Source: Psammoneis japonica (Eukaryota). Taken from it: 64,000 bases of DNA. Shown here one piece after another: positions 8,930 through 61,413 of the stretch (positions within the stretch are counted from its first letter, which is position 1; the number at the start of each line of letters is the position of its first letter). Under the pieces are notes generated by a model. It ran no database searches. It saw nothing but the letters and a program-made list of their open reading frames with translations, and was not told where the DNA came from. The stretch lies in NCBI GenBank assembly GCA_008632985.1, contig QPGO01000072.1:186001-250000 (forward strand), in the 5' to 3' direction. The position numbers and the translations under genes are program-made.

Positions 8930-9680
8930 GCAGCTTCTGCAAGAGGCCAAGCATGGCAAGAAAAGTGGAGTGAGCAAAATGCATGTTTTGGCAAACTTCA
9001 ACATCACACAAAATGTGTGCTTGCAGAACAGCACCAAAAGAAAGCAATTGAGTTCTGTCAAGTTGCAATCCCAGAATCCTGCCTGTCAGTGGGGCCATCC
9101 AGAGCAGCTGCCAAGAGGCCAAGCATGGCAAGAAAAGCAGAGTCAGCAAAATGGCACATGTTTTGGCACATTTTAAAATGTCACAATGCACACTCGCTGA
9201 ACAACACCTAAAAGAAAGGTGTCCCAGATTCCATGTGCCCCAATCCCAGAATCCCACTGCCTGCAAGTGGGGCAATCTCCAGCAGCCACCAAGTGGCCAA
9301 GCATGGTGAGAAAGGCAGAGTGAGCAAAGCAGTGCATGTTTCAGTGTGCTTTAGCATCACAATGCATGCTTGCTGAATGATGCCCAAAAGAAAGGCCTCC
9401 CGTGTGCTGTGTGTTGCAACATTGGAATCCTGCCTGTCAGTGGGACCATCTTGAGTGGCTGCCAAGAGACCAAGCATGGTGAGAAAAGTGGAGTGAGCAA
9501 AACAACTCACATTTTGGTGTGCTTTTGGATGTCATGATGTAAACTCACTGAACAACACCCAAAAGAAAGGCCTCCCAGATGCTGTGTGTTGCAGCCCCTG
9601 TCAAGCAGCTTGGCATCCTTTTTGATGTCATGACATGCACTTGCTGAGCAACACCCAAAACAGAATGAGTGGTCATTGTG
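8930..9680. repeat. Degenerate tandem repeat, about 175-bp unit, 4-5 copies
   Basis: ccaagcatgg(c/t)(a/g)agaaa(a/g)g..gagt.agcaaa recurs at about 8947, 9119, 9297 and 9470. Each copy is followed by ...acacc.aaaagaaagg. Confidence 0.75.
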
Positions 9681-12600: not shown

Positions 12601-12794
12601 CTCTGTTGTTGGCCACGTTGTTGGTGGCAGCTTGCAAAGACGGTGTGCAGGAACATCCACCTTGGACCACCTTGGTGGCTCAATTTCTGTGTGGTGTGAG
12701 GAACTCAGCACCAATTTTGGAGAAGTCATTGTCCCTGATTCCTTGCCAGGGTTGCTGGCTGCAGAAGACAGTCCAGCCTTGGAATGCTCTTCAA

Positions 12795-27267: not shown

Positions 27268-27806
27268 GGCTCTTTCTCTACAGAGAGTTAGAGAAAAACT
27301 ACTAACTATGTCTTACAGGCAATCAGGATATGATAAGGGATATAACAGGAGTACTTCAGAGAAATGCTGTGACGAGTGACGAGGCAGAGTGTACCTTGCC
27401 ATGGTCGACGATCGGTGGTCGGCATTTCGAAAATTGTCACAGCCCGCCCGCCGATGGACAGACAGGCAAGAAAGGATGACATCCGCTATTCAGTCACGGA
27501 TATTTGATTTTGACGGGTCGGAACAAAATCGAATCGCCAGGATCATCGCGAACGAAAAGCGCACAAAACAGACACACGTATCGCGACTTGTTGCTGCTCA
27601 AGCAACATCGATCATAAAAAAACAACAGAAGCTTTGCGAGCAACGTGATAACCTCGTGGATGATTCGGTGCTGTTCCCAGAAGCATTCGAATGCCAAGAG
27701 GCTAGAAAAAAGTGAGACAGGCGGCAAAATAACGAAAGAAAAAAAAACAGAAGAACTGAACCGTCCACAGAAGCAGCATAGTATCATAATTGAATAGTTG
27801 TCAAGC

Positions 27807-30800
27807 ATGAATAAGATTGACTTTTCCAATCTGGAACTGTATGGTCGAGAAGAGGAGTTCAATGTGATTCGAGATGCATACACTCGAGTGAAGGATGCCA
27901 AATCATCGTCCTTGGAAATCGTCATGGTGAAAGGCTACTCGGGGACTGGAAAATCATCTCTTATTCGCAAGCTTCAGAGGTGGATGCTTGAAAACACTCC
28001 AGACGACAATGGGTACTTTGTGTCTGGAAAATTCGATCAACAAAGAACAGCAGAGCCATACTATGCACTTGCGGCAGCATTCAACGAATTGTGTGATCTG
28101 ATCGTTGCTTCGAGTGACAAGGATCAGACCATCAAGTATTTTATGGATGCTGTGGGAAGCAAGGGAAAAGTTTTGTTGGATGTTGTGCCCAAGCTGAATA
28201 AGCTTATAGGAGACGTGAAGAGCGATGGCCGACGTGACGGTACGACAACTACAGCATTGAACCAACTAAAGTTTGTGTTTCGTGCCTTTGTGAGAACCGT
28301 CTGCGCCGTGACAAAGCACCCTATCGTTCTATTTTTGGATGATTTGCAATGGGCCGATGCGCCGTCGTTGGAGTTGATAAAGTCGCTCATGAGTGATTCG
28401 GACAAAACACGCGTGCTCTTTATTGGTTCTTATCGTGACAATGAAGTCACTGAGAGTCATCAGTTTATGAAATGCATGAAGGATTTGGAGAGTGAACGGC
28501 ACATTACCTATATCCAGCTGGGTAATTTTGCTGTCGAATCGGTCAACGATTTGATATCCAGCTTGACAGAACTGAATCCGACCAACACTCTCCCACTTTC
28601 GGAGATTATCTATCACAAAACAAATGGGAACATTTTCTTCGTCCTTCAATTTTTACGCATGCTTCAGGATGAGGGGCTATTATACTTTTCTCTCCAGACT
28701 TATGAATGGTCATGGGACATGGACAAGATCAAGGCTCAAACGAATCTTTCAGACAATGTTGTCGATTTGATGGCAAACAAGATTAAGCGAATGCCCATGA
28801 AGACCCGTGCTGCATTGAAGCTTGCGTCGTGTCTGTGGTCTACTTTTGATGTAGGTCTGCTACAGGAGGTCTTATTGAAGGGAAGAGTCAAGATGGAAGA
28901 TGCGGGGATGACGTGTGAACACATCATTTGCGCTACGGACGACCTTGGTGCTCTTTTGGACCATGCAGCCGACGAAGGCTTGTTGGATAAGCTGTCTGAT
29001 ACGAGGTATAAGTTTGCCCATGATCGTATTCAGCAGGCAGCATATGAGCTCGTCCCCGAAGGACGGGAACGAGAACAGCTTCACCATTGGATAGGCGGCC
29101 TATTGTGGGAAATGACAGAGTCGTCGTCACGGAGTGACGAATGGATGTACTTTGCCGCAGCAGATCAAATGAATCGTGGTGCTGCTCTCATTACCGAGAG
29201 CGAGAAGCGCATAGAACTTGCAAGGTTGAATTTGGTCGTGGGACTTAAAGCCATGTCTCTATCTGCGTTCGTACCTGCTTTGGGATATCTCAAGTCTGGG
29301 CTCGGACACCTGCCGGAGAACTCTCGGTGGCGAGATCACTACGAGCTCACTTTGGAGCTAAACAACGCATTGCTAAGCATGGAGCACTGTTGCGGATCCT
29401 ACGAAGGAACCAAAAAGGTTGCTGATGAGATCTTGGCTAATGCCAAGTCATGCAAAGACAAGATCGACTGCATGTACACGATGGGACATTCTCTTATTGC
29501 TCAACAACGGCATCCGGAAGCTGCCGAGCTGTGCTATACGATGCTGGCCAATCTAGGCGAACGCCTACCGAAAAGAGTCTCAAAAGCCACCGTCGCATTC
29601 GAATGCTTGAGACTCTCAAGACATCTACGAGACAGAAGCGATGAAGAGCTTTTGAACCTTCCGATGATGACGGACGAGATGAAGATTGCTGCAGCAAGAT
29701 TCTACGACTTGATGCACACAAGCAAGTCGCATCTAAGCCTGGTCCAGTACGCAGCGGTGGTAGCAATGCGGATGTTGAGATTGACGTTGAAATTTGGGCT
29801 TTGCGATGAATCACCAATCATTTTTGTACTTTGGGGTCAGGTTCTTATTGGAGAAGGTGATATCAAGGGAGGCTTTCGATTTGGCAAGCTAGCCCTTCAG
29901 CTGGCCGATCGCATCGATTCTAAGATTGTAAAGTCAAGAACAGTGACGCAATTTGCGGTTACTATCAGCCACTGGCGTGAGCCACTCCAGAACAGTTTGG
30001 ATCCGTTGATGGATGCACACAAGACTGCAATGCTTGCGGGCGAGATCACATTTGCATTCACTGGGATATTGGGTTATCAAGTCATGTACTTTTATGGCGG
30101 GCTTCCTCTGGAATCGGGTGTCGAAGACATGCTGGCTTTCAATAAACAGATGAAGGACTATCACCAAAAGATGCTTTATCACGCTCAAGCTCCTGTTCTA
30201 CAAATGATGTTAAACTTAATGGGTCGGTCGGAGGATGTATTGACATTGACTGGCGAGGCCATGGATCAAAGTGATTTTGAGGACCGCGAGAAGAATCCTT
30301 TGGAGTTCGGGCTTCAAGCCATTGCTTCCTGTAGAATGCAGCTTGCATATTACTTTGGCGACTTGGACCTTGCTGCAGAGCTATCTAGGAAGCTACAAAG
30401 CATTCGTGAAATCTCCTTTGCCGCCAGTTACTTCGTGTGCGCTCGGGCCATGTTCTTTGGGCTGATATCGGTTGCGCTTGCTCGAAAAACCAAGAGACGC
30501 AAGCATGCAGCTGAAGCTCGAAAGATTATTACGGATATGGAGAAGAAGTGGGTGAAGCGCGGGGCTGTAAATGTTTTGCACAAGTTACTTCTACTAAAGG
30601 CTGAATACGCTACTCTGAGTACGATCAACTCCGCCGAGAAAGTAAGGGAGGCGTTTGACTCAGCAATATCAACAGCCAGGCGATCAGGATTCACGCAAGA
30701 TGAAGCTCTTGCAAACGAGAGATCTGGGATGTTTTTCTTGGAACGGAATGACAAGTTCTGGGCTTCTTCATACTTGTCACGTGCACATGAATTGTACACT

Positions 30801-30977
30801 GAATGGGGGGCGCTTGCCAAAGCGGATGATCTCGAGAAGACACATGGCTCGTTGCTGCTCACCGATCGGGAACAGCACTACGCATCACATTTGAGAGGCC
30901 GGCAGCGTTTTTCAGATGAGCCAGCCAAGAGTCACAAGAGCCTCGACACAAACGAGCTCTTTCGGCACAGCTTCTGA
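27807..30977 (+). CDS. STAND/AAA_16-type ATPase with helical (TPR-like) C-terminus, COG3899-like, copy 1
   Basis: Intronless ORF, first ATG at 27807. Walker A GYSGTGKS, SGKFDQ, Walker B LFLDDLQWAD, KTNGNIFF, FAHDRIQQAAY, DEALANER. Confidence 0.9.
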   Translation: MNKIDFSNLELYGREEEFNVIRDAYTRVKDAKSSSLEIVMVKGYSGTGKSSLIRKLQRWMLENTPDDNGYFVSGKFDQQRTAEPYYALAAAFNELCDLIVASSDKDQTIKYFMDAVGSKGKVLLDVVPKLNKLIGDVKSDGRRDGTTTTALNQLKFVFRAFVRTVCAVTKHPIVLFLDDLQWADAPSLELIKSLMSDSDKTRVLFIGSYRDNEVTESHQFMKCMKDLESERHITYIQLGNFAVESVNDLISSLTELNPTNTLPLSEIIYHKTNGNIFFVLQFLRMLQDEGLLYFSLQTYEWSWDMDKIKAQTNLSDNVVDLMANKIKRMPMKTRAALKLASCLWSTFDVGLLQEVLLKGRVKMEDAGMTCEHIICATDDLGALLDHAADEGLLDKLSDTRYKFAHDRIQQAAYELVPEGREREQLHHWIGGLLWEMTESSSRSDEWMYFAAADQMNRGAALITESEKRIELARLNLVVGLKAMSLSAFVPALGYLKSGLGHLPENSRWRDHYELTLELNNALLSMEHCCGSYEGTKKVADEILANAKSCKDKIDCMYTMGHSLIAQQRHPEAAELCYTMLANLGERLPKRVSKATVAFECLRLSRHLRDRSDEELLNLPMMTDEMKIAAARFYDLMHTSKSHLSLVQYAAVVAMRMLRLTLKFGLCDESPIIFVLWGQVLIGEGDIKGGFRFGKLALQLADRIDSKIVKSRTVTQFAVTISHWREPLQNSLDPLMDAHKTAMLAGEITFAFTGILGYQVMYFYGGLPLESGVEDMLAFNKQMKDYHQKMLYHAQAPVLQMMLNLMGRSEDVLTLTGEAMDQSDFEDREKNPLEFGLQAIASCRMQLAYYFGDLDLAAELSRKLQSIREISFAASYFVCARAMFFGLISVALARKTKRRKHAAEARKIITDMEKKWVKRGAVNVLHKLLLLKAEYATLSTINSAEKVREAFDSAISTARRSGFTQDEALANERSGMFFLERNDKFWASSYLSRAHELYTEWGALAKADDLEKTHGSLLLTDREQHYASHLRGRQRFSDEPAKSHKSLDTNELFRHSF

Positions 30978-31254
30978 TGGCAACGTGCTGGTTAACAGTG
31001 ACCCGTTGTGATGCATCTCGAGCTAGAGCGAAAATTGAAATTGTGAGGCCAGAATTAGAAATCCCTTCATAGTGCCGTCTACGGTACATCGACGTACGTA
31101 ATCAGTTAATGATGATGACTAATAGTGTGTCATTATTCATTGTAGTCCCTGTGCTGTTTACATAATAAATAATAACAAATCAAAATAATGTACTTGCCCG
31201 CCACATCCTTTCAGGGGTGGCTGATGGGTGAAGCTTTCGTCGCCGACGTGATGG

Positions 31255-34200
31255 GCGCAGCACCAAGGACACATGCGCGAAGAATCATGTTGAAAACTGG
31301 CCCAACCAGCACTGCATCTGTGGTGCACGCTCCTCACATGAAAGGCCACAACCCATGAAAAAGCTCAGGAAGTGGGTCAACCCAAAGATCCTCTTTACCC
31401 TGGAGAGTGTGTGCCCCATGCTGGGTGGGATGGGAGGAACCTTGTTGGCTGTGTTCATTGCACTGCCCTTTCAAGACTCCATTGAGAGTGCAGCTGTGCC
31501 ATCATGACCTTGGCCAACCATGGCAACAAAGAGAAGAGGGCAAGGCTCATTCGCAAAATTGCTAGGAGGAGGAGGAGTTTGACATGGATCAGGCCATCAC
31601 ACTGCTGTTCCTCTCAAAGCAAGTTTTGCCAGATGAGCTTGGGGTCTTCTTTGCTCCTCCTCTTTGTCAACCAGAGCAAAGATGCAGCCCCTTGAGAGAA
31701 AGCTGCAACCAAGTGCAGTGTGAAGGCATTTGGTGAGGAGTTTTCCAAAAGATTTCATCACAGCACCACTGAGCTCTGTCATTGGTGCCAAAGGGCCAGC
31801 CATGAACTCAACTCTTGCAATGAGTGCTTTGGCCAGGACACAACTGGAAATGTGGTGTGAACACCTCACTGGGTTGTCAACCCAGTGCCTGAGTGCTGCA
31901 AGCTGGCACATTGGCCAAAGGCTCTTCATTGCCAGCAAAGATGTCCCAAGGGATGAGGGGGGATCACAGCTGTGACCAGGGTGAGGCACTGTTGGGAAGT
32001 GTGACCACCAAAGCTTTCTCACACATTTTGGTGGGCAAGAAGACACCCCCCATTCCATGGCTCTGGTGCTCTGCTGGTCTTGCTGTGCTGTGGGATGGTG
32101 ACTCTGTCTCAAACAAAATTTGCACTGAACTGCTGAAGTGTTCATGTTGGCCACTCCAGCAGAGCCATCTTGGCAAAGCACCTTTGCTTTGGAAGGAGCC
32201 AGTTCTCAGAGACTCCAGCAGCTGTCTCACCAGCAAAGTCATGGTGCTGACATGACTGCCAGCTCTTGGCAGACAATTTCTCTTGCAGTGACACTGAATG
32301 ACTTCAGCCCACAATGCTCTGTGCTGCTGTGCTTGCCACCAATGCAAGGAATGTGCCAAAAACTTGAGCCTCTGCCACCTCTTTTTCTTTTGTGTTCATG
32401 CTGTCCAAGGCATGGTGCCAATCAAGCACATGTGGCCAGCCAGGAGGCTGGTTGTCAACCTGGCTCAGCAACAGCATGTGTTGCCTGTGCCAACCCACCC
32501 AGCACACGCAAGACCTGCAGCTTTGGGAGCTGCTGTCAAGGCTGCTGGAGTGAGAAGCCTTTTGTCCTCTGTTTCCCATGGCAGCTGAAGCTGCTGGAGT
32601 GAGCTGCTGCTGCAGCTTCTCCAGCATGCTTCTTGGCTGGCTCCTGTCCAGTCCCCCTAGAAAGGTGGTGCAGAGCTGCCATTGCCCTGAATGGTCTGGC
32701 CCCTTCCACCCTGCATCTCTCAAGCATCAGATCAACAGCCTTGTGCTTTCCAGCTTTCTGTGAGGTTGCTGAGCTCCCTGCTTGTTGGCCCCTCACACTG
32801 CCTTCTTCTGGTCTTTGCTCGGATGATGAGAAAAGGCACAAAGCTCACCTCTTGCACTGTCTTGGGGCAACACATCACATTGTTGCAACAGCCACACACT
32901 TTGCGCTGTCCACACAATCTTTCCCAGCCTTGCAGGTGTTCTTTCCTGCACTCAATGAGGACAATGGACCAAAAAGAGTTTGTGCCCAGTGCAGCCCTTG
33001 CACATTTTCTCTCTTGTGGGAGAGTTGAATTGCTGCGGCCCTGGCTCTCCATTGAAGTTCAGCAGCACTTGCTTGTCATGCTCTTGAAGAAGCCCCTCAA
33101 GCTTGTTGATGATTCTCAACTGCCCTGTTGCACTGCTGTCCATGACAACATTGTGGCTGGATTGTTGCTGCATCTGTGGGTGTGGTTTGTTGTGACAGGG
33201 CAAACAAGACAGTGGAAAAGGAGCAAGCATCAAGTGTGAGGTGTGAGAGCTGGCCCTGCTGGTGGTCGACTGTTGTTGTTCCCTTCACCCCGGCTCAATG
33301 TGTGTCCTTCTTGAGTGGCAATTCCACACTCCCGGGTGCCTCTGATGGACATTTTGTTCTACAACATTTCTTAAAATGCGACATCCATCACTGTGCATGA
33401 GAGACAAGAGAGGTGCTTGTTGAGCATTTGAGCTTGTCGAACGCCCAATTTTCTGAGAGCACCGACCTCGCGTAAATTCGCAAAACGACATGAAAAACCA
33501 ACAAACAAAAAGCAAGCAAACAACACACCGCGATGCACGACGCACATCAAAATCATTGTGGGAGCAAAAGATGCCACTTTCATTGCAGCTGGCTGTCCAT
33601 GTGCAGTGAACAGGACCCCAAAAGGCAGCAATTGGAAGTTCCTCTTTGTCTTTTGAAGGACCAGAAATGCTAACTTTCGAAAAGTTCCCCACCTCTCTGA
33701 CATGTCATGTCAAGTGAAATGGGCTTCAAGTCGTTTCTGGGGCCCAATCCCGGTGGCTGCCTTGCTTCAGCTGTTCGGCGCGCATTGGAACATGCCCTGG
33801 ATCCAGGCAACGATGATCCACATCACCGTGATCATTGGTGGTCCTGGAAGGACTGGCCCATGGATGGTCGTCAGTGGACTCGGAGAGACGGAGGATCGTA
33901 CAAGCTCGATCGAAGCTGTGTCGGTGAACAGAAGAAACGTTCGGAGCAAATGGACAACTGTTGCGGAACCAAGATCTGGTCGAGCGCAAGCTAGAAGGTG
34001 TGATGTGGGATTGTGACAATCCTGGAACGCAGGTGCGAGCCACAGGAGATTTCGATGTTGATCTGTTTGATGTGTCGGCAGAGGATGACACAACTCTGCT
34101 CATGCAGGTGATGGTGGAATTCCGGAAACGTTTCCAAAAATTTGACGAGCAAGCTGAGTGGGACCCTTCTGTTGCCGCAGACATGAAGGGGACGAGGCCA

Positions 34201-35600
34201 GATGCAACACTGAGAGAGCAGTTTGAAGAAGCGGATCATTTCAGTCCCCTCCGTGTGAGATTCGGACTGATTGAGGAAGAAACACTCGTGCTTGGAAACT
34301 TGTCCATCTTTTGGTGCACTGGTGCGTTTGCAACAAGGGATGAGCAGAGAAAAACCCAAAGTGGAGAGGTGGACGAGGGAGGGACACTTTGCATTTGTGC
34401 AGATGCTTTCTTGGTGCATTTTCACGCTGGTGTTCCTCGGACGACCTTGGTTGTTGCCGAGGTGCCCCTCTTGTCGCCAGTGGAACCGAAGCTGTTCATC
34501 AAAAGCACTCATGATCATGTTGCAGGAATCTGTCTTTTTGACGCTGCTCAATTCAACCAAGACTCAGAGCCAACCATTTTGAAGCCTGCCAATGCAGTGG
34601 TGGATGAACCACCGAAGAGCGTTCTCTGCGCTGTCTGTGTTGAGTCTTGTGACTGTGATTTCGAGTCATTGGACGACGGCCCGAAGGAATTGATGCTCGA
34701 AGATTGTGGTCTGACCCTGCTGCGTGCCATGCAACAGTGTGTCAAATCTAACGAGAAGGCATTGCTGAAAGCGCCTGCAATTCACACGCCACCGTATGGT
34801 TCCAAGCAAGCCATCGGCTTGCCGCCGGTTCGCACCCTCTGCTGCCACCAGACTGTCTGCCGAGGAGACCCCCGCTGGCCAAAGATTCCTCCAAACTCGG
34901 TTTGCCTGCAATGTGGCAAGGGCCCAAAACATCCAGATGAAGCGATGCGAATCAGAAACCTAGATCAGTGCTCGAAATGTCGAGTCCGACAGTTCTGTTC
35001 CAAGGATTGTCTCAAGAAAAGTTGGAAATGCAAGAGTTGGCCCCACAAGTGCGAGTGCAACAAGAAACATGAGCATGACTTGTCAACTGTGGGTGTGTCC
35101 ATGTGCAATCAGCTCCACGAAGCTGCGGGCGAAGGTGCTTTGAACGTGACCCCGGACAATGAACAGCATCTGCAGGACATTTACGAGAAACTGGAAAAAG
35201 GAAAGTTCGACCGCGTTCCTGGCAGTCTAGAGGAGCTGCACGAGCAGCAAGAGCAGTCAGCTGAGAAGGCAAGGGCAGCCCATCGAAACAAAAAGAAGAA
35301 GAAAAAGGAAAGAAAAAAGAGATCTCCGAAGGCCAGCTGATGGCGCCGCAACGTTTCGCAAGTCCTGCTTTCTCACAGGATCCTTTCTTTTCGCAAGCGA
35401 CATCCTGAAACCACAAAAAGAGAGCCTGCAGCATGAACAAAAGGCTGAACTTTAGAACAATTCTTGAACTGGAATGTTTTTCACAGATTGCTTCTACCAC
35501 ACCAAAAGGCTGAATGTGCCACTCTGAGTGCGACCAACCAACACCGCCGAGAAAGCAAGGGAGGCGTTCAACTCAGCAATGTCCACAGCCAGGCAATCAG
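31255..35600. other. Hypermutated domain 2 (insertion within the ATPase cluster)
   Basis: Abrupt loss of TpA from about 31200. 31260-33400 lacks both TpA and most CpG. 33450-35340 lacks TpA but keeps CpG. Confidence 0.85.
33707..35340 (+). pseudogene. MYND zinc-finger protein, TpA-mutated
   Basis: CLQCGK...CSKCRVRQFCSKDCLKKSWK...HKCEC matches the MYND spacing. Only 2 Tyr in the 459-aa ORF. Probable frameshift near 33960; the 5' end is uncertain. Confidence 0.7.
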
Positions 35601-35890
35601 GATTCACGCAAGACGAAGCTCTTGCAAACGAGAGAGCCAGAGCAGTCTTCTTGGAACGGGACGACAAGTTCTGGGCTTCTTCATACTTGTCGCGTGCACA
35701 TGAATTGTACACCGAATGGGGCGCGCTTGCCAAAGCATGCGATCTCGAGAAGACAGACGGCTCGATGCTGCTCACGGATCAGGAACAGCACTGCGTGTCA
35801 CATTTGAGAGGCCGGCAGCGTTTCTCAGATGAGCCAGCCAAGAGTCGTAAGAGCCTCGACATAAACGAGCTCTTTCGGCGCAGCTTTTGA
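35433..35890 (+). pseudogene. Internally deleted third STAND ATPase paralogue
   Basis: 35370-35472 resembles the upstream region and start of copy 2 (atgaacaaaaggct). It is fused directly to sequence matching the last about 410 bp of copy 1 and its 3' flank. Confidence 0.85.
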
Positions 35891-36236
35891 TGGTAACCTG
35901 CTGGTTCAATGCGACCCGTTGCGATGCATCTCTCGTGAAAATGTGAGGCCAGAAATCCCTTCACAGTACTGTCTGAATCGACTTGCGTAATTAAAATGCG
36001 TGTATTGATGCATATACAATGGTTTATGGCTATTCATTTTGGAAAAGTGATAATATATTTAAAATTTCAACATACGATATCCTCTCATTCAGGGGTGGTT
36101 GATGGGTGAAGCGTGAAGCGTGAAGCTTTTCGCCGCGACGCGCGATGATGAGCTTGGAGCTATCCATAGACCTAATCCTGCTCACAGATCGCAGTCGCAA
36201 GTGACGCCCTGAAAACACAAAACGAGAGCTTGTAGC

Positions 36237-39200
36237 ATGAACAAAAGGCTAGACTTTGGAAATCTTGAACTGCAAGGTCGAACAGAGGAGTTCAATGTGC
36301 TCTGTGACGCTTATCTACGCGTCAAGAATACCGAAACGCCGTCTTCCGAAATCGTTCTGGTCCGAGGCTACTCGGGGACTGGAAAATCGTCGCTAATTCG
36401 AAAGCTGCAGACGTGGATGCTAGAAACTCAGAATGAGAATGGGTACTTCGTGTCGGGGAAATTTGATCAACAAAGAACAGCTGAGCCGTACTATGCACTT
36501 GCAGTAGCATTCAACGAATTGTGCGATCTAATAGTTGAGGGAGATGCGAGGGAGAAAATCATGGCCGCTTTTGTGGAAGAAGTCGGTTTGAAAGCGAAAG
36601 TGCTACTTGACGTCGTGCCAAATATGAAGCAACTTATTGGAGATGATTTTGCCAGGGACGATGGTAGAAGGGAGAGCACGTCAACGTCGTTGAACCAACT
36701 GAAGTTTGTGTTTCGTGCCTTTGTGCGGAGCGCGTGTGCAGCGATAGTGCAACCCATCGTATTATTCTTGGATGATTTGCAATGGGCCGATGAGGCGTCG
36801 TTGGAGCTGATCACGTCGCTCGTAACTGATTCAGATTCGACTCATTTTCTCTTTCTGGGTTCGTACCGCGACAATGAAATCAGCGAGAATCATCCATTTA
36901 CAAGACACTTGAAAATTATTGAGAGCGGAAATCACATGAGTCTTGTTCACTTGGGTAACTTCGATATCATATCGGTCAATCAATTGATAGCCATTCTGAC
37001 GCAACTGAATCCGATCAAGACTGAGCCTCTCGCCGAAATTGTCCATCACAAAACAAACGGCAACATTTTCTTCGTCCTTCAGTTTTTACGAATGCTTCAA
37101 GGGAATAACCTCCTCTTTTTCTCGTTTCAAACTTTTGAATGGACATGGGACTTGGACAAGATCAAGGCTCAAACGGATCTTACAGACAATGTGGTTGATT
37201 TGGTGTCCAAGAAGATCGAACGGATGTCTACAAAGACATGCGCTGCACTGAAGCTCGCGTCCTGTCTTTGGTCCACATTTGATATAGGTTTAGTACAAGA
37301 TATGTTGCTGAAGGGAAATGCTATTGCTGAACGTGAGGGATTGTCGAGTGATTTAGCTTCCTGTTTGGACGAGGCTGCAGACGAGGGACTGCTCGACAAA
37401 CTGTCTGACACACGTTACAAATTTTCCCACGACCGTATTCGTCAGGCCGCATACGAGCTAATACCGAAAGGACGGGAACGAGAGGAGTTCCACCATTGGA
37501 TTGGGGGAATGCTGTGGGAAATGGCAGAGTCGTCACAAAGTGAAGAATGGATGTACTTTGCTGCGGCTGATCAAATGAATCGCGCTTCCGCTCTAGTCGA
37601 GAAAGAAGAAATACGGGTTGAGTTGGCCAAGCTCAACCTGCTTGTAGCCGAGAAGGCGATTGCGTTGTCTGCCTTTGTTCCTGCTTTGGGATATCTCAAG
37701 GCTGGACTCATTCTGCTTCCAAAGGAGACTCGTTGGCAAGATTACTATGATCTAACGCTGAAGCTGAGCAATCAGTTGTTGGATATGGAACATTGTTGCG
37801 GTCGCTGTGAAGAAACTCAGAAAGTCGCTGATGAGATCTTCTCACATGCCGTGTGTTCGCAAGATAAAGTTGAGGCGCAGTTTACGATGGGGCTCTCTCT
37901 GGTGTCCCAGACAAGGCAGCCTGAAGCCGCGGAGTTGTGCTTTTCGGTATTAGAGAGTTTAGGGGAACGTCTACCAAAACGAGTTTCAAGGATAGCACTT
38001 TCTGTCGAATGCAGCAGACTCTCAAGGGCTCTCAGAGACATGAGCGATGAAGACATTCTAGATCTTCCTCCAATGAAGGAGGACTTCAAGATTGCTGCTG
38101 CCCGGTTTTATGACCTAATGTACAATTGCAAATTTCATGTGGGGTTGATAAGATATGCCTCACTGTTGGCCGTGAGGATGACAAGATTGACGTTGCGATA
38201 CGGGATTTGTGACGAATCGCCTTTCTTCTTTTCATTCTGGGGCCAGGTCATGATAGCCGAAGGTGATATTAGGGGAGGATATCGCTTTGGAAAGCTTGCG
38301 CTCAAGTTGGCTGATCGTGTTAACACCAGAAATGTGAAGGCTCGAACGGCGACCATTGTCAGCACTTTTCTCAGCCACTGGCGGGAACCGTTACAGAATA
38401 GCTTACAACCATTGTTGGATGCACATAGGAGTGCCATGCTAGGTGGCGACATCACCTGGTCATCTCATTGTATTTTGGGCTATCAAACAATGTACTTTTA
38501 TAGCGGTCTCCCTCTGGGAACTGCAGTGGAAGACATGCTGGCTTTCTCAAGACAGATGAAGGAATATAACCAAGAACTGTTTCAAAGAGCTCAGCCACCG
38601 GTCTTGCAGACGATGCTAAACTTGATGGGTCGGTCCAAGCATGATGTGTTGACATTAACGGGCGACGCAATGAATCAAAAAGAATACGAGGACCAACTGG
38701 CGAATCCGCTCGGATTGGGGCTGCAGACTATAGCATCTTGTAGAATGCAACTAGCATACTACTTTGATGACTTGGAGCTTGCAGAAGAGTTATCAAAGAA
38801 GCTTCAGATCAACGCAAAGAATGAAACCTACGTTGCAAGTTATTACACGTGTGTACGGACCATGTTTTTTGGACTTATATCAATTGCTCTTGCTAGAAGA
38901 ACAAAGAAACGAAAGCACTCTTCAAAAGCGCGGAAAATCATCGCCGATATTAAGGAAAAGTGGGTAAGGCGTGGAGCTGTTAATGTTTTGCACAAACTGT
39001 ACCTTCTGGAGGCGGAATACGCGACTCTGAATAATGCTAGCAAGACTGACAATGTGAGAGAAGCATTCGACTCGGCGGTGTCGGCAGCGAGAAGATCTGG
39101 ATTCATCCAAGACGAAGCTCTTGCTAACGAGAGAGCCGGCATATTTTTCTTGGAACGGGGCGACAAGTTTTGGGCCTCGTCCTACTTGTCGCGTGCTCAT

Positions 39201-39386
39201 GAGTTGTACATCGAATGGGGGGCGCAGGCCAAAGCCGATGATCTCGAGAAGAATCATGGCCTGACAGTGATGACCACCCACGAGGAGCAGCACGTCTCCC
39301 ACCTGAGGGGACGGCAGCATTTTTCAGATGAGCCAACCAAGTGCCACAAGGCTCTTGACTCGAACCACCTTTTTCACAATGCGTAA
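36237..39386 (+). CDS. STAND/AAA_16-type ATPase, COG3899-like, copy 2
   Basis: 1049-aa intronless ORF colinear with copy 1, with the same motifs (GYSGTGKS, LFLDDLQWAD, FSHDRIRQAAY). Confidence 0.9.
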   Translation: MNKRLDFGNLELQGRTEEFNVLCDAYLRVKNTETPSSEIVLVRGYSGTGKSSLIRKLQTWMLETQNENGYFVSGKFDQQRTAEPYYALAVAFNELCDLIVEGDAREKIMAAFVEEVGLKAKVLLDVVPNMKQLIGDDFARDDGRRESTSTSLNQLKFVFRAFVRSACAAIVQPIVLFLDDLQWADEASLELITSLVTDSDSTHFLFLGSYRDNEISENHPFTRHLKIIESGNHMSLVHLGNFDIISVNQLIAILTQLNPIKTEPLAEIVHHKTNGNIFFVLQFLRMLQGNNLLFFSFQTFEWTWDLDKIKAQTDLTDNVVDLVSKKIERMSTKTCAALKLASCLWSTFDIGLVQDMLLKGNAIAEREGLSSDLASCLDEAADEGLLDKLSDTRYKFSHDRIRQAAYELIPKGREREEFHHWIGGMLWEMAESSQSEEWMYFAAADQMNRASALVEKEEIRVELAKLNLLVAEKAIALSAFVPALGYLKAGLILLPKETRWQDYYDLTLKLSNQLLDMEHCCGRCEETQKVADEIFSHAVCSQDKVEAQFTMGLSLVSQTRQPEAAELCFSVLESLGERLPKRVSRIALSVECSRLSRALRDMSDEDILDLPPMKEDFKIAAARFYDLMYNCKFHVGLIRYASLLAVRMTRLTLRYGICDESPFFFSFWGQVMIAEGDIRGGYRFGKLALKLADRVNTRNVKARTATIVSTFLSHWREPLQNSLQPLLDAHRSAMLGGDITWSSHCILGYQTMYFYSGLPLGTAVEDMLAFSRQMKEYNQELFQRAQPPVLQTMLNLMGRSKHDVLTLTGDAMNQKEYEDQLANPLGLGLQTIASCRMQLAYYFDDLELAEELSKKLQINAKNETYVASYYTCVRTMFFGLISIALARRTKKRKHSSKARKIIADIKEKWVRRGAVNVLHKLYLLEAEYATLNNASKTDNVREAFDSAVSAARRSGFIQDEALANERAGIFFLERGDKFWASSYLSRAHELYIEWGAQAKADDLEKNHGLTVMTTHEEQHVSHLRGRQHFSDEPTKCHKALDSNHLFHNA

Positions 39387-39730: not shown

Positions 39731-40039
39731 GAGACTGTTACTCACCGAGAAAAGAGATGGTCGCATGAAAGGGCGAATCGTCTGCAGTGGGAAACCGACC
39801 CGAGAGTGGCCAGACAAAGACAAGTCAACCGGCCCCACTGGTGCATCCTCAGAAAGAACACGGCTGCGGCGATTGTGGTTGGCGCATGTGAAGAGCTCGA
39901 TGTCATGAGCACTGATGCACCAAACAGGCAAAGACCAGATCATGATGAAAATTGCAAGAGCATTGGGCAGCAACATGCATGTGTGGCGCTGGAAAAGGGA
40001 AAGAGAGTCCACTGCGTCCAAGTCATTGAGTCTGTTTGC

Positions 40040-40680
40040 AGCAGGAAGATTGCAGCTTTGCTGCAGCACAAGCCATCTCACAAAGACTTGAAGAAGATGG
40101 GGTTCAATTCAACCCATGTGATCCATGCATTGCAAACCGAACAGTCAGTGGCAAGCAGCAAACTGTCTGACTCCATGTGGACGACCTGTTGTCCTCGAGC
40201 CATGAGAGCTCAAAAGCAAACTGCCAATTTATGAGCTGGCTAAACAAGATGTGTGGAAGCCATGATGGTGAAGCTGACACTGTGCAAGGGAAGAGACATG
40301 GTAGCCTTGGCATGACCCTGCACTTTCAGGCACAACACAAGGTGAAAATCCACATGATTGACTGTGTTCACAAGATGATTGATCAGTTTCCAGAGCAGAT
40401 CAACAGCACAGATGCTGCCAGCCATGATGCCAGCTGGAGAGAACACATTTGGCATCAGTGGTGCCAGATTGCCAAACAAGAAGGCACAGACCTTCCCCAT
40501 GCATGGGTGGTCAAGAGGCTGTTTGTGTCCAAGAGAGGCTGTGTGGATGTGCACCGCTGTTGCCACATCTCATGCACGCGAGTCAGAGAACCCACCAATG
40601 AGGATTGGGGAAAGCCAGTCCATTGTCTCAAGCATGTGAACCAGACACAAAGAAATGAATTTGCTGCATTGAGCAGAAAG
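40040..40680 (+). mobile_element. Degenerate Copia (CoDi-like) reverse transcriptase fragment
   Basis: WLNKMCG...GKRHGSLGMTLHF...KVKIHMIDCVHKMIDQFPE and LFVSKRG...CTRVREPTNEDWGK...CLKHVNQT correspond to Copia RT palm/thumb motifs with Y->C/H changes. Confidence 0.75.
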
Positions 40681-41489
40681 GTGCTTTTCAGCAGGTGTTG
40701 AAGGCAGAGACCATCCCTTGTCAAAACTCCAGATGGCAGACAGCATCATGCACACCCAATTCTGGGTGCAGCTCCCCCAACTGTGACAAGGAAAAAGCTG
40801 TGGCACATGTGGATGAATGTCTGGTGGGAGCCAGTGACATGAGGGGAAAGCACTGAAAAGATGACCACACGCATGGTGATGAATCAGATTTGTTCGAGTC
40901 TGATGGGGACAATTGTTCCAACACAGGAGGTGAGTGTCAAGGCATTCTTGCAAAGTTGGCATGGTGGGCAACCGCAACAAAAAAGCAGGGCACAGACTCC
41001 ACTGAACACAATGCTTCCCAGTTACAAACACATGATGTCTGGGAAGGAGCGCTTTTGACACTCATGAAGTGCTTCTGCAGATGAGACTAAGTCGTCTTCC
41101 TTCCAAGAAATGCCACCACACATTTTAAATTTTCTGCTTGAAAGTCTCAGGTCACACAGAACAAGACCACGTGGCCACACAAATCATGGATGATCCCAGC
41201 CCCTTGAGGACAACTGACACCATTGTGCGCGAAACAGAATCAGGTTCTCATCAATGCTGACATTGATTTCCCTTGAATGACAGCTGTCTTTCTGCATCCA
41301 TCGCATTGAAGCAATCCTTCTTATGACCCCATTTCCAGTCTTGTTTCTGACAGTCTCTGCTGCAGTGCTTGATGCACTTGCACTGCGCACATTGTTTGGC
41401 AGGTTTTTTGCAGCAAAAGAAGCAGCGAGAATCTACAAAATTTTTAGTTTTTTCAATGTTTCCATCCAGGAATTTTCCAGAGTTTCATT

Positions 41490-42130
41490 GCCAGAACAAG
41501 GCTTCTGGAGTGGGACAGTGTCCAGCAAAGCAGACACTCCCAAACTCTGCTTCTGCCATTTCTAGCATCACACTAGAAAGGAGGTCTTGTGCATCATGTT
41601 CACCATTCACAGCAGCCTCTTTCAACCAATGCACAGCATGATGGAGTGACTTTTTCAATCTGCTGCCCCCCCTTGCAAAAGCAGAGCCCCAGCGAATGCT
41701 GGCCATTCCTGTGGTGTTGAGCGGCAGAGAGTGCCACCGAAAATGCAGCTTCGGGATTGCTTTCACATTCGTCACACATCAATTGGCTCAGACAAAACTG
41801 AGATGTTGCACAGCCCATCTCTGCTGCTTGTAGAAGGTGCTTCTTGGCTGTTCCCTTGCATTTCTCCATGCCTTCCCCTGCCAAGTGGCAACATCCCAAA
41901 GTCCTTTGCAACCTCACATGACCATGCTCCACAGCATGATGGCACCACTCGAATCCTTTTTCATCATCTACAACTGTGCCACTCTCATCTTTGTTCACAC
42001 ATGTCTCAGCCAAAGCCACCTCAACCCAAACTTTTCCACTCTTTGCATGGTTGAGATGCTGCTCAATTCTCTTCTCCATGGAATCGGCAAATGGTGTCCT
42101 GCAATGGGGGCATTTTGAAAAGTCAACCTC
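41490..42130 (-). pseudogene. Sel1-like repeat protein relic (preceded by a CPxCR RING-like end)
   Basis: CPHCRTPF...KGFEWCHHAVEHGH..LQRTLGCCHLAGEGMEK..TAKKHLLQAAEMG..SQFCLS...GQHSLGLCF..HAVHWLKEAA matches the Sel1 consensus with Tyr replaced by Cys/His. Frameshifted. Confidence 0.75.
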
Positions 42131-43059
42131 AGCACCACCCACACGTGTCTGCAATGACAATGACAAAAAAAACTGGAAATCTGTTTTACCGCTGCCTTGC
42201 CACCACCCACACCAACACCGACCACAGCAGACCCACGTTTCCCAGTGCCCACAAAGGGCAGCAGGGACAATTTGGGCACCACTGAACGTTGTCAGAAAGA
42301 CAATGCCATTGACACATTGTCCAAAGGCAATGCCATTGGTGCATCATCAGAAAGAGGCTGTTTGTTTTAAGTCAGAATGGCAACTGACCAGATGCTTGTT
42401 ACACAGCAACCACAGTTGCTGTGCCTCAAAGAATGGACAAGCCCAGCCACACCACTTGGGAGACACCAAAACAAACACTGCAGAAAACCAAACACACGTC
42501 CATCTCCAAAGATGATGTGCTTGAAGAGATGTGAGAGAAATTCCTGGGATGAAAAACACCCCTGGGATGAAAAAACACCCAAGAAAGTCCAACATGGACC
42601 CCAACGAAGGAAAAGGAAATGATGGTCAGAGTCGTTGGATGAAACTTCCGTCATGCACAGAATTGTGCAGAAATTGTGTGCTGAAGCTGCAACATCAAAG
42701 AGCAAGAGGAGCAACACCAAGACTTGGAAATTCGGACCACTTGGAAGACCCATGACGACCCACTTTGGAACACCGTAGAATGTCCATCATCAATTGCAGT
42801 GTGTTGGAAAGAAAACTCAAAGGAAGTGAACTGGTGAGAAGAACAAGAGGACAAACCTGACACAGTCGTTGACTCGAAATTCTGGCCAAACGCACAGAAA
42901 TGTGCGTGAAATTTGCACTGAAATGACTGACTTGGGAAATTGCTGAATCGCACAGAATTTAATGTAGAAAACATGCTGACATCAGGAAAGAAAATGTGCA
43001 AAGAGATGCAACACACCATGGTGGCACCACTCCCCCGAATGTAGAAACAACAGAGTGTC

Positions 43060-43300
43060 CCCTCTGATGCCTTTTGGTTTTTCTGTCATTGGCACAACTG
43101 CCCAATGTCCCAAAGTGCCTGAGGAGGTTGGCATGCCACCACACTCTCACATGGGACTCTCACATGGGACAATCCCACTGGCGATTGTGCAGAATTGTGT
43201 GACAACAATGACAGCATTGGCTGGAAGTTCTTCCTGAATGGGCATTTGTCTGAGCATCCTCAGCACATGTGGGCTCCACAGCATGACATTCGAACATTCA
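43060..43300 (+). mobile_element. Possible non-LTR retrotransposon C-terminal relic
   Basis: Only the short motif DSIGWKFFLNGHLS, reminiscent of the IGW..F..G.LS motif after the zinc knuckle of diatom non-LTR elements. Confidence 0.3.
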
Positions 43301-43751
43301 TTTCTTTGTCGCATTGCACTTCCAGGTCTGAGAACACCTCCAAACATGTGATGCATGCCCCTTCTGTGTCGTTTTGCAGTCTCTTGACTTTGCCACTGCT
43401 TTTTGCTCTGCTTCCTGTTGTGTCTTCTTCACCCTGTCAATTTCTTCAATTTCAACCAGCAGTTCATGACATTTTGCCACTGTGATTTGCTGAAGTTTCA
43501 GCCTGTCTTTGGGAAGAATGCTCTTTGAATTGAGTTTTTTGGTGAGCTGCGCAAGGTCAGCTGCCAAGAGCTTGCAACATTTGTCCCTCTACATTGTAAA
43601 AGGCAATGCTCTGAGGCTCAATTTCTCAGGCGCAGGCTCTTGTTGTGTGGATGAGGATCAGCACCGATTTGTGAGCTGATCAAAGAATTTCCTTTGCACA
43701 GCTTCACAGAACAAGGTCAACTCCAACCAGCCGAGATCTTGTCATGATCAA

Positions 43752-44139
43752 GGGGGGTTGTCCCCATGTTTGTCCTGGAATTGTCATGGCATTTGAACAA
43801 GGACATTTGTGGTTTTATTTTTGAATGCAAAAATCACTTGCATTCACCCCCGATCGCACATGAAACTGAGAACATCAGGCACCACGATCGAAGCATGATG
43901 ATGATGGCAATGTCGACACAGCTCAAAAACGCAGTGGTCCATTCTCAAACATTTGATGCACATGTGACCTTTGATGCACAACAAACATGAAACAAATCAG
44001 AGTTGACAGACACACCACCTCTGTCACAGATTCATGGCTTGATGTTTTCGCCAAGGTGAAGCACCACGAAAATCAGGAAAAATCATGTGAGTCACAAGCC
44101 ACTCGGTTGCATTTGAGCCAAAAAAGCAGCAAATGACCC
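43752..44139. mobile_element. MITE copy 2 (family of 1162-1542)
   Basis: TCAA|GGGGGGTTGT...AATGACCC|TTGA; internal sequence colinear with copies 1 and 3. Confidence 0.75.
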
Positions 44140-44201
44140 TTGATCAACTCCAACTAAAATTTTGACCATCCACGTTTTTTTGCTCATTTGCGCATGATCA
44201 A

Positions 44202-44604
44202 GGGGGGTCATCCTCGTGTTTGTCCTGCCTGGAATTGCCCCGTGGCACCCAAATGAGAGCATTTGCAGCGTTCCTTTTTGAATGCAAAAATTGTTTGCAT
44301 TCACCCCCAATCATGCAGGAAAATGAGAACATCAGGCACTGCGATCAAAGCATGGCAATGACGGTGATGTCATGACATGGCTCAAAAATGCAGCGATCCA
44401 TCCTCAAACATTTGATGCATGTGTGACCTTTGAGACACACAACGAACACAAAACAAATGAGAGTTGACAGATGGGCCACCTCCTTCACAGACTTGTGGCT
44501 TGATGTTTTCACCATGGTAAAGCACGGTGAAAATCAGGAAAAATCATGCAAATCACCAGCCACTTGGTCAAATTTGAGCCAAAAAAAGTGGCAAATGACC
44601 CCCC
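44202..44604. mobile_element. MITE copy 3 with perfect 10-bp TIRs
   Basis: TCAA|GGGGGGTCAT ... ATGACCCCCC|TTGA. Confidence 0.8.
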
Positions 44605-45707
44605 TTGACTCCCACGACAGGGGCTGACTCCTCCAATCGGTTCATCTGGTGACACAATCTCTCTCCAATGTTGACCCCTTCAAACATTTGAGCCTCCTCT
44701 AGAGAGAGTTTCAAAGCCCATTCTCTGCTCTCTGTGATGTTCACATTTTGTTCCCACAACAATCAAATCAGATTTATTTTCTCGGATGCAATCAGCAGGG
44801 TGGCTCTTCTTGATGTTGCCATTGACCATGTGCAAGCAGTCACGCTCCCCCCCCCCAAAAAAAAAGTTTGCAGATGCACCCACGCATGACCTTCATTTTG
44901 GTTTGGAGGCACTTTGCATTCACACAAGTCCTCACAGTGTGAATCGTGATGCAGCTTCATTCACAAAGCAAAGGTGCCCCCCATTTGCCACCGAGTGTGA
45001 GATCCGCGGCCATTGCCGTGTCTCCTTCACAGCCCAAGAGTCAACAGACAAAGGAGGTGAAGCACACAGTGTGGGGTGATGGGCTGCTGTTGATGGCAAC
45101 GGAGACATGCGTCTTCAAGTGGGGTGTGATGGGCCAAACTGCAGTGGGAGCTCTGAAGAGAAGAAAAACATGTCAGTGCCGAAGTGCCGATGCTTCCTGA
45201 GCCCGTGGAAAGCACAAAACAGAGGATGTGACTCTCACTCAACATGAGGCTCTTATTTTCTGTTGTTAGCGCAAGTGGTGTCGGGGAGAGACAGCGTCTT
45301 GTTGAACAGTGACAATGTCAAAAGAGGAGGTCGATAGACGACAGACGATACAGCACCGGTAAAGCGTGGTTTTGTCGTGGTAAAAAGCGGAGCCTGCTCG
45401 CTCTGTGCTCTGGAGGGTACTGTACACACACACGGTACTGTAGTTACAGCAATTCAACGTCCGGGTTACTTCCGGGCTTGTGGACAGACCCATCGCCAAA
45501 AATCTGATGAACGACACAGCTGATGACTGAAAACCATCGCATCACAGAGATGACACAATCCACAGAAAACCCTGAAGAAGAAGGTCTCTGTTCTGTTTGC
45601 ACTTCTTGTCGACGCTTTACGATTGATCTCATTTTTGGACGATACGCAGTATCTCTAAGCGTTGAGGCCAACGACAGCAGAAAACGCATACCGGTTTCTC
45701 CAAGAAA

Positions 45708-53519: not shown

Positions 53520-54166
53520 TCAAGGCTCTTCCTTCTCAAACTCCTCCAACGACTTTCGCAGGGACTCTGACGGCAAAGAATGCCTGCGTTTGTCTTCATT
53601 TGCGTCTTCATCTTCTATTGAAAAGCCGGCGGACAGCAACTCTTCAGAATTTTGCGGGTCACTGATCGATACCCGACGCTGTGGAGACAAGGAGGACAAC
53701 TTCTGTCGCCGCGCCTTCTCCTGCTCATCCAAGAGAACCCCCATTTCATCCCTTTCAATCTCCATCACTGGACCCATCTGATCTTCTGGATCGCTTTTTG
53801 TAGTAGATGCCGTGTCTTGTCGATTTTGAAGGGCCTTTTCTTTGACCGTGACGGTACTTTTCCCTAGTTCTGTCGTACTTTCTGCTTCCAATGGCACGCT
53901 TGGAAGCGACACAGTCATACGACGGGAAGCTCTAGTCATGTCTGGAAGGTTTGCCGTCCCCTGACATATCGCATATCGCGCAACTCTGTACCACCTCCAA
54001 TGAGGGTAGCATTTCTTCACGGATGCATATCGTGGATGCAAATGGAGGAAGAAATTGAAAAAGCCTTGAAAAGGTTGCAATGTGTTACCCAACAGCACAA
54101 TCCAATACTTTGGGGGTACGTTCTCCACAAGCCGTTTTGCATTTGCAATGGTGATCCAGGCATAAG
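53520..54166 (-). pseudogene. 3' part of a 7TM GPCR-like (cAMP-receptor/Git3-like) gene interrupted by Copia
   Basis: YAWITI...LQPFQGFFNFFLHLHPRY followed by a hydrophilic tail. It joins in frame to 61414-62299 when the element and one TSD are removed (IFFNT|YAWIT). Confidence 0.8.
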
Positions 54167-54400
54167 AGTCACGACTCAACGTCATTCTGGTCGCATCTCA
54201 CGACTACAACCCAGACTCAGATTTTCTCTTCGAAATAATTAGCTCATCACAAAATCGATTCAAACAGAAGCAACGACATTCGTCATAATTTCTAGACAAC
54301 GACTTTCAAAAAGCGTCTGTTTACCTCTGTCGCTATTCATATTGCTACCAACCTCCGAGGTCTTATCCATCCTACTCAGCTGCAGGACTGTATCTCGACT
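54167..54400 (+). repeat. 5' LTR (AGTC...GACT termini)
   Basis: Ungapped match to 61175-61408 with 12 substitutions. Confidence 0.95.
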
Positions 54401-54413
54401 GGTCACAGAGACC
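54400..54413 (+). other. Putative primer-binding site
   Basis: TGGTCACAGAGACC directly at the 5' LTR end; resembles the tRNA-iMet type TGGTATCAGAGC. Confidence 0.5.
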
Positions 54414-61153: not shown

Positions 61154-61165
61154 GCTCTCTCGGTT

Positions 61166-61408: not shown

Positions 61409-61413
61409 GCAAG

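Follow-up and report, generated by a model that had tools for sequence, protein, structure and literature searches.

TpA-restricted A:T to G:C transitions in bounded zones of a diatom contig and the probable hypermutation of a MYND-family gene

A 64,000-nucleotide stretch of the genome of the diatom Psammoneis japonica (GenBank assembly GCA_008632985.1, contig QPGO01000072.1, positions 186,001 to 250,000; hereafter, the window) was analyzed with respect to a MYND-family gene that is almost devoid of the dinucleotide TpA. Within bounded zones of the window, TpA has been converted in place and on both strands by A:T→G:C transitions restricted to this dinucleotide. We consider that the zone at 31230-35800, including the MYND-family gene, was hit by a DNA-level, TpA-specific A:T→G:C hypermutation (probability approximately 0.65). 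Position along the chromosome, and not target sequence, homology, or copy number, decides which DNA is converted. The converted targets were a Copia retrotransposon, a duplicate of a host-type gene, a STAND pseudogene, and the MYND-family gene; no viral gene was recognized among them. All composition results given below refer to this one window.

TpA and CpG content around the MYND-family gene

The interval 33707-35340 (1634 bp) contains exactly seven TpA, at positions 33899, 33992, 34749, 34795, 34961, 35182, and 35228, with an observed/expected ratio (o/e) of 0.08. The original prediction, which was made from the letters of the sequence, had put the count at about seven in about 1.6 kb and had noted the absence of TpA between about 33995 and 34745; both statements were correct, and the TpA-free gap from 33992 to 34749 is 757 bp long. 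When the interval was shuffled by mononucleotides 2000 times, the mean number of TpA was 92.9 and the minimum was 69. Stretches of 1634 bp with normal composition in the window (n = 249) contained 24 to 100 TpA (median, 57; median o/e, 0.54). At the window background, 50.6 TpA are expected in 33707-35340, and the Poisson probability of seven or fewer is 2e-14. CpG had been described as plentiful, and 79 were counted (o/e 0.72), together with 164 TpG (o/e 1.60) and 123 CpA (o/e 1.24). The CpG o/e is slightly under the 5-95% range of the normal stretches (0.81-1.09); CpG is thus abundant in this interval, yet not untouched.

A 300-bp profile indicated that TpA is near-absent without interruption from approximately 31230 to 35800, and that CpG is also erased only from approximately 31400 to 33250. 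Therefore, the depletion at 33707-35340 is real, but these positions are not the bounds of the feature, and 33707 is not the start of the gene. The adjoining stretch was indeed found to lack both dinucleotides: only one TpA and three CpG are present in 32001-33000, and neither dinucleotide occurs in the 300-bp windows starting at 31601-32201. Near 33250-33300, the CpG o/e jumps from 0.16 or less to 0.6 or more within about 200 bp, with TpA near zero on both sides. The zone thus falls into two parts. In the old unit at 31230..33280, TpA and CpG are both erased, and the o/e values of TpG and CpA reach 1.6-2.2; it is without recognizable coding content, and none of the 13 open reading frames (ORFs) of at least 90 amino acids overlapping it matched a Pfam family at E<=0.01. 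In the TpA-only zone at 33280..35800, the o/e of TpA is 0-0.16 and that of CpG is 0.57-0.91. The MYND-family gene and its flanking DNA are in this zone, as is the greater part of a truncated STAND pseudogene.

A contig of sequencing run X1 (12,533 bp; word depth 63; short-read-like) corresponds to 27426-39955 with seven base differences and three one-base indels. Since this contig reproduces the assembly, the composition of zone 31230-35800 is not a local assembly error, although the independence of this support is partial, as the assembly may have been built from run X1. The contig is unbroken at depth 63, which indicates that the zone is single-copy at the 31-mer level. X1 reads one added base after 27705 (A), 32357 (A), and 33975 (C), and at each of these sites the assembly has probably retained a 1-bp deletion.

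The ORF of the MYND-finger family occupies 33928..35340 on the plus strand (470 codons from stop to stop). The ATG at 33950 is the probable start; it is in frame, as judged by eye, once the extra C of X1 after 33975 is counted, and the N-terminus read from it lines up with that of the relative P0002. The best relative is P0001 (E 1e-82). The family is small, with 18 relatives, none of them named, among 1.84 billion representatives, and scans of metagenomes with the family alignment and with P0001 for the relatives' DNA yielded no locus. The description of this gene as a MYND gene holds by homology only: all 11 aligned relatives matched zf-MYND (PF01753) at E<=0.01 (best E, 9.1e-6). The ORF itself matched no Pfam family at E<=0.01 and showed no MYND match even at E<=10. 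It nevertheless keeps the zinc-binding Cys/His pattern, with all eight Cys columns conserved in the relatives and all four Trp retained; the residues C326, C329, C351, C357, C361, H373, and C377 are invariant in the 12-sequence alignment.

Of all amino acids, only Tyr cannot be encoded without a TpA within the codon. At the six columns that have Tyr in both close relatives, the window ORF has no Tyr at all, and carries His (CAT), Cys (TGC), Cys (TGT), His (CAC), Phe, and Lys instead. None of the three conserved Tyr of the 12-sequence alignment is kept, and a Tyr that is invariant in all 11 relatives is Cys (TGT) in this ORF. The strand bias of the products in the ORF (141 TG and 108 CA) resembles that of normal plus-strand genes (271/220 and 257/201), and is uninformative.

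Direction of change in the Copia LTRs and in gene duplicates

The long terminal repeats (LTRs) of the Copia element were compared with each other. Because the two LTRs of an element are identical at insertion, all differences between them arose after insertion. The 5′ LTR (54165..54401, plus strand; 12 TpA and 13 CpG) lies outside, and the 3′ LTR (61173..61409, plus strand; 4 TpA and 11 CpG) lies inside, a second TpA-poor zone; a purine run (GAGAGGG) is present directly upstream of the 3′ LTR. The 12 differences between them consist of 10 at TpA (six TA→TG and four TA→CA) and two CpG→TpG, with none at the approximately 185 sites elsewhere. The 3′ LTR lost nine of 13 TpA and two of 13 CpG with no other change, whereas the 5′ LTR lost one of 13 TpA, none of 13 CpG, and nothing else. 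The difference in TpA loss between the two LTRs was significant (Fisher p = 0.0036).

A degraded duplicate at 5756-6736 corresponds to the 3′ end of a cytochrome b561/DOMON gene, the normal copy of which is at 14779-15723. Relative to the normal copy, 31 of 41 TpA are now TG (17) or CA (14), and 33 of 42 CpG are now CA (18) or TG (15); the pair is 24% diverged overall. Most AA dinucleotides in this duplicate are unchanged (44 of 57), four being now AG and two GA. Double changes between TG and CA had been considered as a sign of cycling (6/68 and 7/64). Since their frequency was like that of AT→GC in the 5756-6736 alignment (7/65), this idea was dropped.

The zone 31230-35800 is flanked by two intact STAND genes of normal composition on the plus strand, STAND gene 1 on the left (27798..30977; Pfam AAA_16, E 1.9e-26) and STAND gene 2 on the right (36213..39386; AAA_16, E 2.9e-26). 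An internally deleted STAND (AAA_16) copy at 35391..35974, also on the plus strand, resembles 36195-36278 at its 5′ end and 30570-31080 at its 3′ end, and its TpA is converted up to approximately 35800. A three-way comparison polarized by STAND gene 2 as the third sequence assigned the loss of four of four TpA, the loss of two of eight CpG, and 24 other changes to the branch of the truncated copy. No TpA was lost on the branch of the intact STAND gene 1, which had four CpG losses and 15 other changes. When the products were pooled, 33 TG and 25 CA were counted, a ratio that does not depart from 1:1 (binomial p = 0.36). Both strands were therefore converted about equally.

These comparisons bear on the idea that the changes arose at the RNA level, by A-to-I hyperediting of the type of the adenosine deaminases acting on RNA (ADAR) or on tRNA (ADAT), and were fixed via reverse transcription. 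ADAR-type editing prefers U as the 5′ neighbor (bioRxiv 10.64898/2026.01.13.699255), and one of the converted elements is a retrotransposon. However, the LTRs diverged after integration, both strands were hit (33 TG : 25 CA), and conversion in place extended to DNA other than retroelements, namely, a pseudogene and a gene duplicate together with the flank downstream of it. The probability of this explanation is extremely small.

Within the 3′ LTR, the loss of TpA (9/13) exceeded that of CpG (2/13; p = 0.015), with a hazard ratio of approximately 7. When the 3′ LTR and the truncated STAND copy were pooled, 13 of 17 TpA and four of 21 CpG had been lost (p = 0.0008). A ratio of the same order was obtained from the o/e values of 33707-35340 and the normal medians (TpA, 0.08 vs 0.54; CpG, 0.72 vs 0.93). 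The hazard per TpA in the 3′ LTR was 1.18, compared with no change at about 185 other sites, and by our own arithmetic this corresponds to a rate at least about 70-fold over background. Because A:T→G:C changes cannot come from the deamination of cytosine, TpA loss is separate from the decay of 5-methylcytosine (5mC). It is therefore apparent that TpA conversion differs chemically from 5mC deamination and outpaces it. The proposal that the TpA signal is not a by-product of 5mC deamination was thus borne out by the TA→TG/CA changes seen in the LTRs and the duplicate and by the CpG that were kept. The accompanying proposal that TpA is converted first and that CpG follows holds insofar as TpA was lost faster, but a strict time series is unproven, as the CpG step near 33250-33300 agrees equally well with kinetics, with units of different age, and with a narrower methylated core. 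Similarly, in the suggested series of stages, Copia is moderately affected and the old blocks have lost both dinucleotides, as proposed, whereas the light conversion assigned to a CRE element was not supported: the o/e of TpA in the region of the reverse transcriptase ORF at 47-51 kb (0.31-0.68) lies inside the normal range of the window or on its margin.

The conversion also affected the coding content of the Copia pol. At 15 aligned columns of conserved Tyr, the element has Cys at five, His at four, Phe at three, and Tyr at three, the codons for Cys and His being TGY and CAY, and this retention of Tyr (3/15) is lower than that of other conserved residues (175/231; p = 2e-5). Its Tyr content is 1.26%, the median of 120 relatives being 3.0%. 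Five of these 120 relatives (P0196, P0201, P0204, P0209, and P0211), which are distant and come from other sources, are also Tyr-poor (0.8-1.6%); they keep 10-13 Tyr at 20 conserved columns, the rest being mostly Phe or Leu without the Cys/His pattern. The Tyr-poor Copia relatives thus lend no support to the presence of the same signature in other genomes.

In each duplicate pair, only the copy within a zone was converted, and LTRs that were identical at insertion lost nine and one TpA, respectively. These results indicate that targeting is by position, which argues against a trigger resembling repeat-induced point mutation (RIP) and against sequence-guided targeting. The positional pattern fits a chromatin-type domain that is able to spread. 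In a RIP-like, homology-triggered defense, duplicates would be recognized by pairing and then mutated, and each zone does have duplicated material (5756-6736, 35391-35974, the repeats at 42-45 kb, and Copia). RIP of fungi likewise consists of dinucleotide-specific transition hypermutation, which inactivates repeated or foreign DNA in place and can leak into neighboring single-copy genes. However, RIP requires duplication and hits both copies, and it changes C to T mostly at CpA and so makes TpA and AT-rich DNA. Here the change is the opposite of its CpA→TpA product: TpA is destroyed, the GC content of converted DNA stays near 50%, and only the copy in the zone is hit. Furthermore, the zone 31230-35800 is single-copy. 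A RIP-like trigger is thus very unlikely, and identity with fungal RIP was rejected, as the TpA/ApT index is lowered rather than raised (0-0.1 in the zones), one copy per pair is hit, and the LTRs differ by nine to one.

A further alternative is that no mutational process is involved, and that 33928-35340 is a working gene whose codon usage is unusual, or that the sequence is an artefact of sequencing or assembly at modified bases. The frame is open for 470 codons with eight of eight conserved Cys, and there are three 1-bp indels relative to X1. On the other hand, the depletion extends beyond the ORF into its non-coding flanks and into a pseudogene, and the ORF has lost an invariant Tyr. The 12.5-kb X1 contig (depth 63) differs at no more than seven bases, and the divergence of depleted copies from their paralogues (24%) is spread over every class of site. 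This alternative is highly improbable.

Zones and blocks along the window

When the window was divided into 128 windows of 500 bp, 78 were normal, 37 had lost both dinucleotides, 13 were low in TpA only, and none was low in CpG with normal TpA. Twelve of the 13 that were low in TpA only are in the two TpA-only zones, and the remaining one, at 20001, is borderline. The second TpA-only zone, at 57000..62300 (TpA o/e, 0-0.37; CpG o/e, 0.64-1.17), contains the 3′ half of Copia, its 3′ LTR, and approximately 0.9 kb of flanking DNA, and there is no CpG-erased core for it within the window. Two further blocks have lost TpA. TpA and CpG are both erased in block A (1450..12900), which includes the duplicate at 5756-6736 and whose right edge enters the 5′ part of the gene at 12813-15279. 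In the block at 39800..45250, which contains high-copy repeats, TpA is erased and the CpG o/e is 0-0.5. The TpA edges are sharp at approximately 1450, 12900, 31230, 35800, 39800, and 45250, and at every block edge an abrupt drop in TpA is positioned outside a more gradual drop in CpG.

The first ~700 bp of the cytochrome b561/DOMON gene (12813-13500) lie in the graded edge of block A, with a TpA o/e of 0.2-0.38 and a CpG o/e of 0.46-0.79. Compared with the paralogue, TA is changed to TG or CA at eight of 16 sites and CG to TG or CA at 19 of 39 sites in this segment, and the remainder of the gene is normal. This edge looks like spreading into a gene.

The decay of 5mC accounts for the loss of CpG in the old blocks, where CG has become CA at 18 and TG at 15 sites of the duplicate and CpG falls gradually at the block edges. 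It cannot yield TpA→TpG/CpA, and it fails for 33707-35340 (TpA o/e, 0.08; CpG o/e, 0.72); the TpA-only zones keep CpG at an o/e of 0.6-1.0. Methylation could, however, act indirectly if TpA loss were a by-product of repair, in which the T:G mismatch left by a deaminated 5mC is resynthesized in an error-prone patch, so that the CpG itself is correctly restored and nearby A:T pairs mutate. Errors of the WA→WG type made by Pol eta are characteristic of phase 2 of immunoglobulin somatic hypermutation. Such dependence on 5mC would agree with the TpA-poor zones always enclosing or adjoining CpG-poor cores, with the absence of windows low in CpG only (0/128), and with the location of both LTR CpG changes in the TpA-converted 3′ LTR. 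However, the changes are too strict for a WA polymerase, since ApA is mostly kept (44 of 57 AA unchanged); the LTR changes are transitions only, with none at sites other than TpA and CpG; and no core devoid of CpG accompanies the zone 57000-62300 within the window. A repair by-product is therefore regarded as unlikely.

Stop triplets over the six frames are mostly TGA in converted DNA: 95 of 113 in 33280-35800 and 93 of 98 in 31230-33280, compared with 700 of 1237 in normal DNA. A TA→TG/CA change removes TAG and half of TAA, and never turns a sense codon into a stop, so that the remaining stop triplets are almost all TGA. Since no sense codon becomes a stop, the 470-codon frame and a frame of 1990 codons stay open. 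The openness of converted frames is thus not evidence of function, and hypermutated pseudogenes and dead transposons that keep very long ORFs would be called as genes during annotation. None of the 94 ORFs of at least 90 amino acids in the fully erased blocks matched a Pfam family at the curated cut-off. Four sub-threshold matches in ORFs of the erased blocks (LIFR_D2, Cornifin, PG_binding_5, and Sel1) were treated as chance.

Several other features of the window were recorded. Within the fully converted block at 39800..45250, the word depth of X1 is 1663-2327 at 42216-44751, compared with 63 in the flanks, and contigs join across skips of 70-630 bp; this segment belongs to a high-copy, partly tandem (43743-44601) repeat family. 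A 1347-codon ORF at 16574-20617 (plus strand) encodes six DOMON domains in tandem units of approximately 630 bp that are 70-86% alike, and it is preceded and followed by the DOMON/cytochrome b561 paralogues at 12813-15279 and 19799-22239, respectively. The ORF at 45666-46943 (plus strand) matched LbR_Ice_bind, a beta-roll of the grass-antifreeze type (E 2e-17), and its C-terminus showed a sub-threshold match to the RING finger zf-C3HC4_3 (20.0 bits vs the 27-bit cut-off). The named relatives of genes in the window are from Epithemia, Fragilaria, and Thalassiosira.

Contigs of a second run, X2, which is listed as "DNA?", correspond to 27631-31145, 36194-39575, and 45564-46000. They are gene-sized and of unequal depth (36 vs 179), and the run looks transcript-like, its kind not being on record. 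The X2 contigs over both flanking STAND genes stop at 31145 and resume at 36194, adjoining the zone edges. The intervals 31146-36193 and 39576-45563 are without an X2 contig, which was not used for or against silence.

Candidate mechanism and relation to known systems

In the mechanism that we propose, the zones would be transcriptionally silent, heterochromatin-like intervals that spread into neighboring genes. TpA would be changed there by an enzyme that acts on DNA, for which an adenine deaminase converting A to inosine, which is read as G, is the leading candidate. A change of A on one strand would turn TpA into TpG, and a change of A on the other strand would turn it into CpA. The change overrides coding constraint, Tyr codons having become Cys or His codons. 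The loss of CpG in the older cores would be due to ordinary 5mC deamination proceeding in parallel, and the zone of the MYND-family gene may be an extension, either younger or free of methylation, of an older core in which conversion is complete. Transposable elements (TEs) of diatoms are described as marked by 5mC (PMC9998398), and by analogy such marking plausibly accounts for the loss of CpG in the cores.

The TpA still present in the partly converted zones (33300-35800 and 57000-62300) have flanks that differ from those of TpA in normal DNA (chi-square p = 8e-6). The survivors are rich in CTAA/TTAG and CTAG, and ATAT, ATAG/CTAT, and ATAC/GTAT are almost absent. CTAA and CTAG together make up 24 of 73 survivors, compared with 125 of 1036 TpA in normal DNA, and the ATAN classes make up 12 of 73, compared with 469 of 1036. 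These results suggest that the mutator prefers flanks in the order TAT > TAC ~ TAA >> TAG (that is, ATA > GTA ~ TTA >> CTA), although the survivor bias may in part reflect newly arising TpA. The natural substrate of ADAT/TadA is A34, which follows the invariant U33 of tRNA. By analogy, a deaminase derived from ADAT/TadA is one candidate for the enzyme.

A thymine target would leave the same sequence outcome. In this explanation, the T of TpA is modified to 5-hydroxymethyluracil (5hmU) or a base-J-like derivative by a TET/JBP dioxygenase, and then mispairs or is repaired to C. In dinoflagellates, 5hmU favors TpA and TpC. The symmetric TA→CA/TG outcome and the regional confinement agree with it, and because TpA is self-complementary, the base that was hit is indistinguishable in the sequence. 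On the other hand, no sign of such a modification or enzyme is present in the window, and TpC is not visibly depleted in 33707-35340 (TC o/e, 1.16). A thymine target is accordingly given a low probability.

Several points weigh against the hypermutation of zone 31230-35800 by an enzyme acting on DNA. The silent domain and the 5mC in the core are both things that we infer, and no candidate enzyme is encoded in the 64-kb window. Adenine deamination, thymine modification, and error-prone synthesis are indistinguishable from the sequence alone. The polarized counts are small (13 + 13 LTR sites and 4 + 8 sites in the STAND copy), no target-site duplication was recognized at the ends of the Copia LTRs, and the nested pattern of TpA and CpG loss comes from a single window. 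The CpG step near 33280, inside a continuous TpA-poor zone, is not explained by a difference in rate alone, and requires units of different age or a methylated core that is narrower than the zone. Finally, the eight of eight conserved Cys and the frame from ATG to stop of the MYND ORF leave room for a residual function.

The same signature was measured directly in mutation-accumulation lines of Bigelowiella natans (Mettrop et al., bioRxiv 10.64898/2026.01.13.699255). In two regions of that genome, 230 of 231 mutations were A→G or T→C, all of which are reported to be on TpA, at a rate of about 1000 times the background and in single-copy integrated viral DNA, namely, that of nucleocytoplasmic large DNA viruses (NCLDV) and virophages. 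Its authors propose adenine deamination for the TpA signature. According to the parts of the preprint consulted, both cases have in common changes exclusively from TpA to TpG/CpA, both strands, sharply bounded regions, and single-copy DNA, as well as a long-term footprint of TpA depletion with CpA and TpG enrichment; TE-type domains and a zinc finger are enriched among the TpA-depleted coding sequences of B. natans. As judged by these sequence features, which include TpA restriction, both strands, and bounded regions, the signature in the window is of the Bigelowiella type.

There are also differences. The host is a diatom (a stramenopile) here and a chlorarachniophyte there, and in place of viral DNA, an LTR retrotransposon, duplicated genes, a pseudogene, and a MYND gene of host type are the targets in the window. 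Conversion is near saturation in the window (o/e 0-0.1), whereas Rho is 0.45 in the NCLDV region of B. natans. Nesting with CpG erasure is observed here and is undiscussed in the Results and Discussion of the preprint. The rate in the window is only a lower bound of about 70-fold from the LTRs, compared with a measured rate in B. natans.

In the literature searched, TpA-specific hypermutation of eukaryotic DNA has a single description, the 2026 preprint on one rhizarian alga, and no report of it in diatoms was found, coverage of subscription journals being thin. The window thus adds diatoms, a second and ecologically major lineage, with the same signature at saturation. It also provides a natural LTR experiment (nine vs one TpA lost), absent from the consulted parts of the preprint, and this experiment favors position or chromatin over sequence as the basis of targeting. 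Furthermore, the process is separable from 5mC decay, TpA being lost about seven times faster than CpG within one LTR. The flank bias of the survivors is a testable fingerprint for candidate deaminases.

It is tentatively proposed, at somewhat less than even odds, that diatoms have an enzyme-driven defense opposite to RIP, which converts A:T to G:C at TpA in silent chromatin, is aimed by position, and spreads into host genes from transposon-rich cores. If this is true, neighboring host genes would be killed through Tyr→Cys/His replacements while their reading frames stay open. Taken with the chlorarachniophyte case, TpA hypermutation would then be an old system spanning the stramenopiles, alveolates, and Rhizaria.

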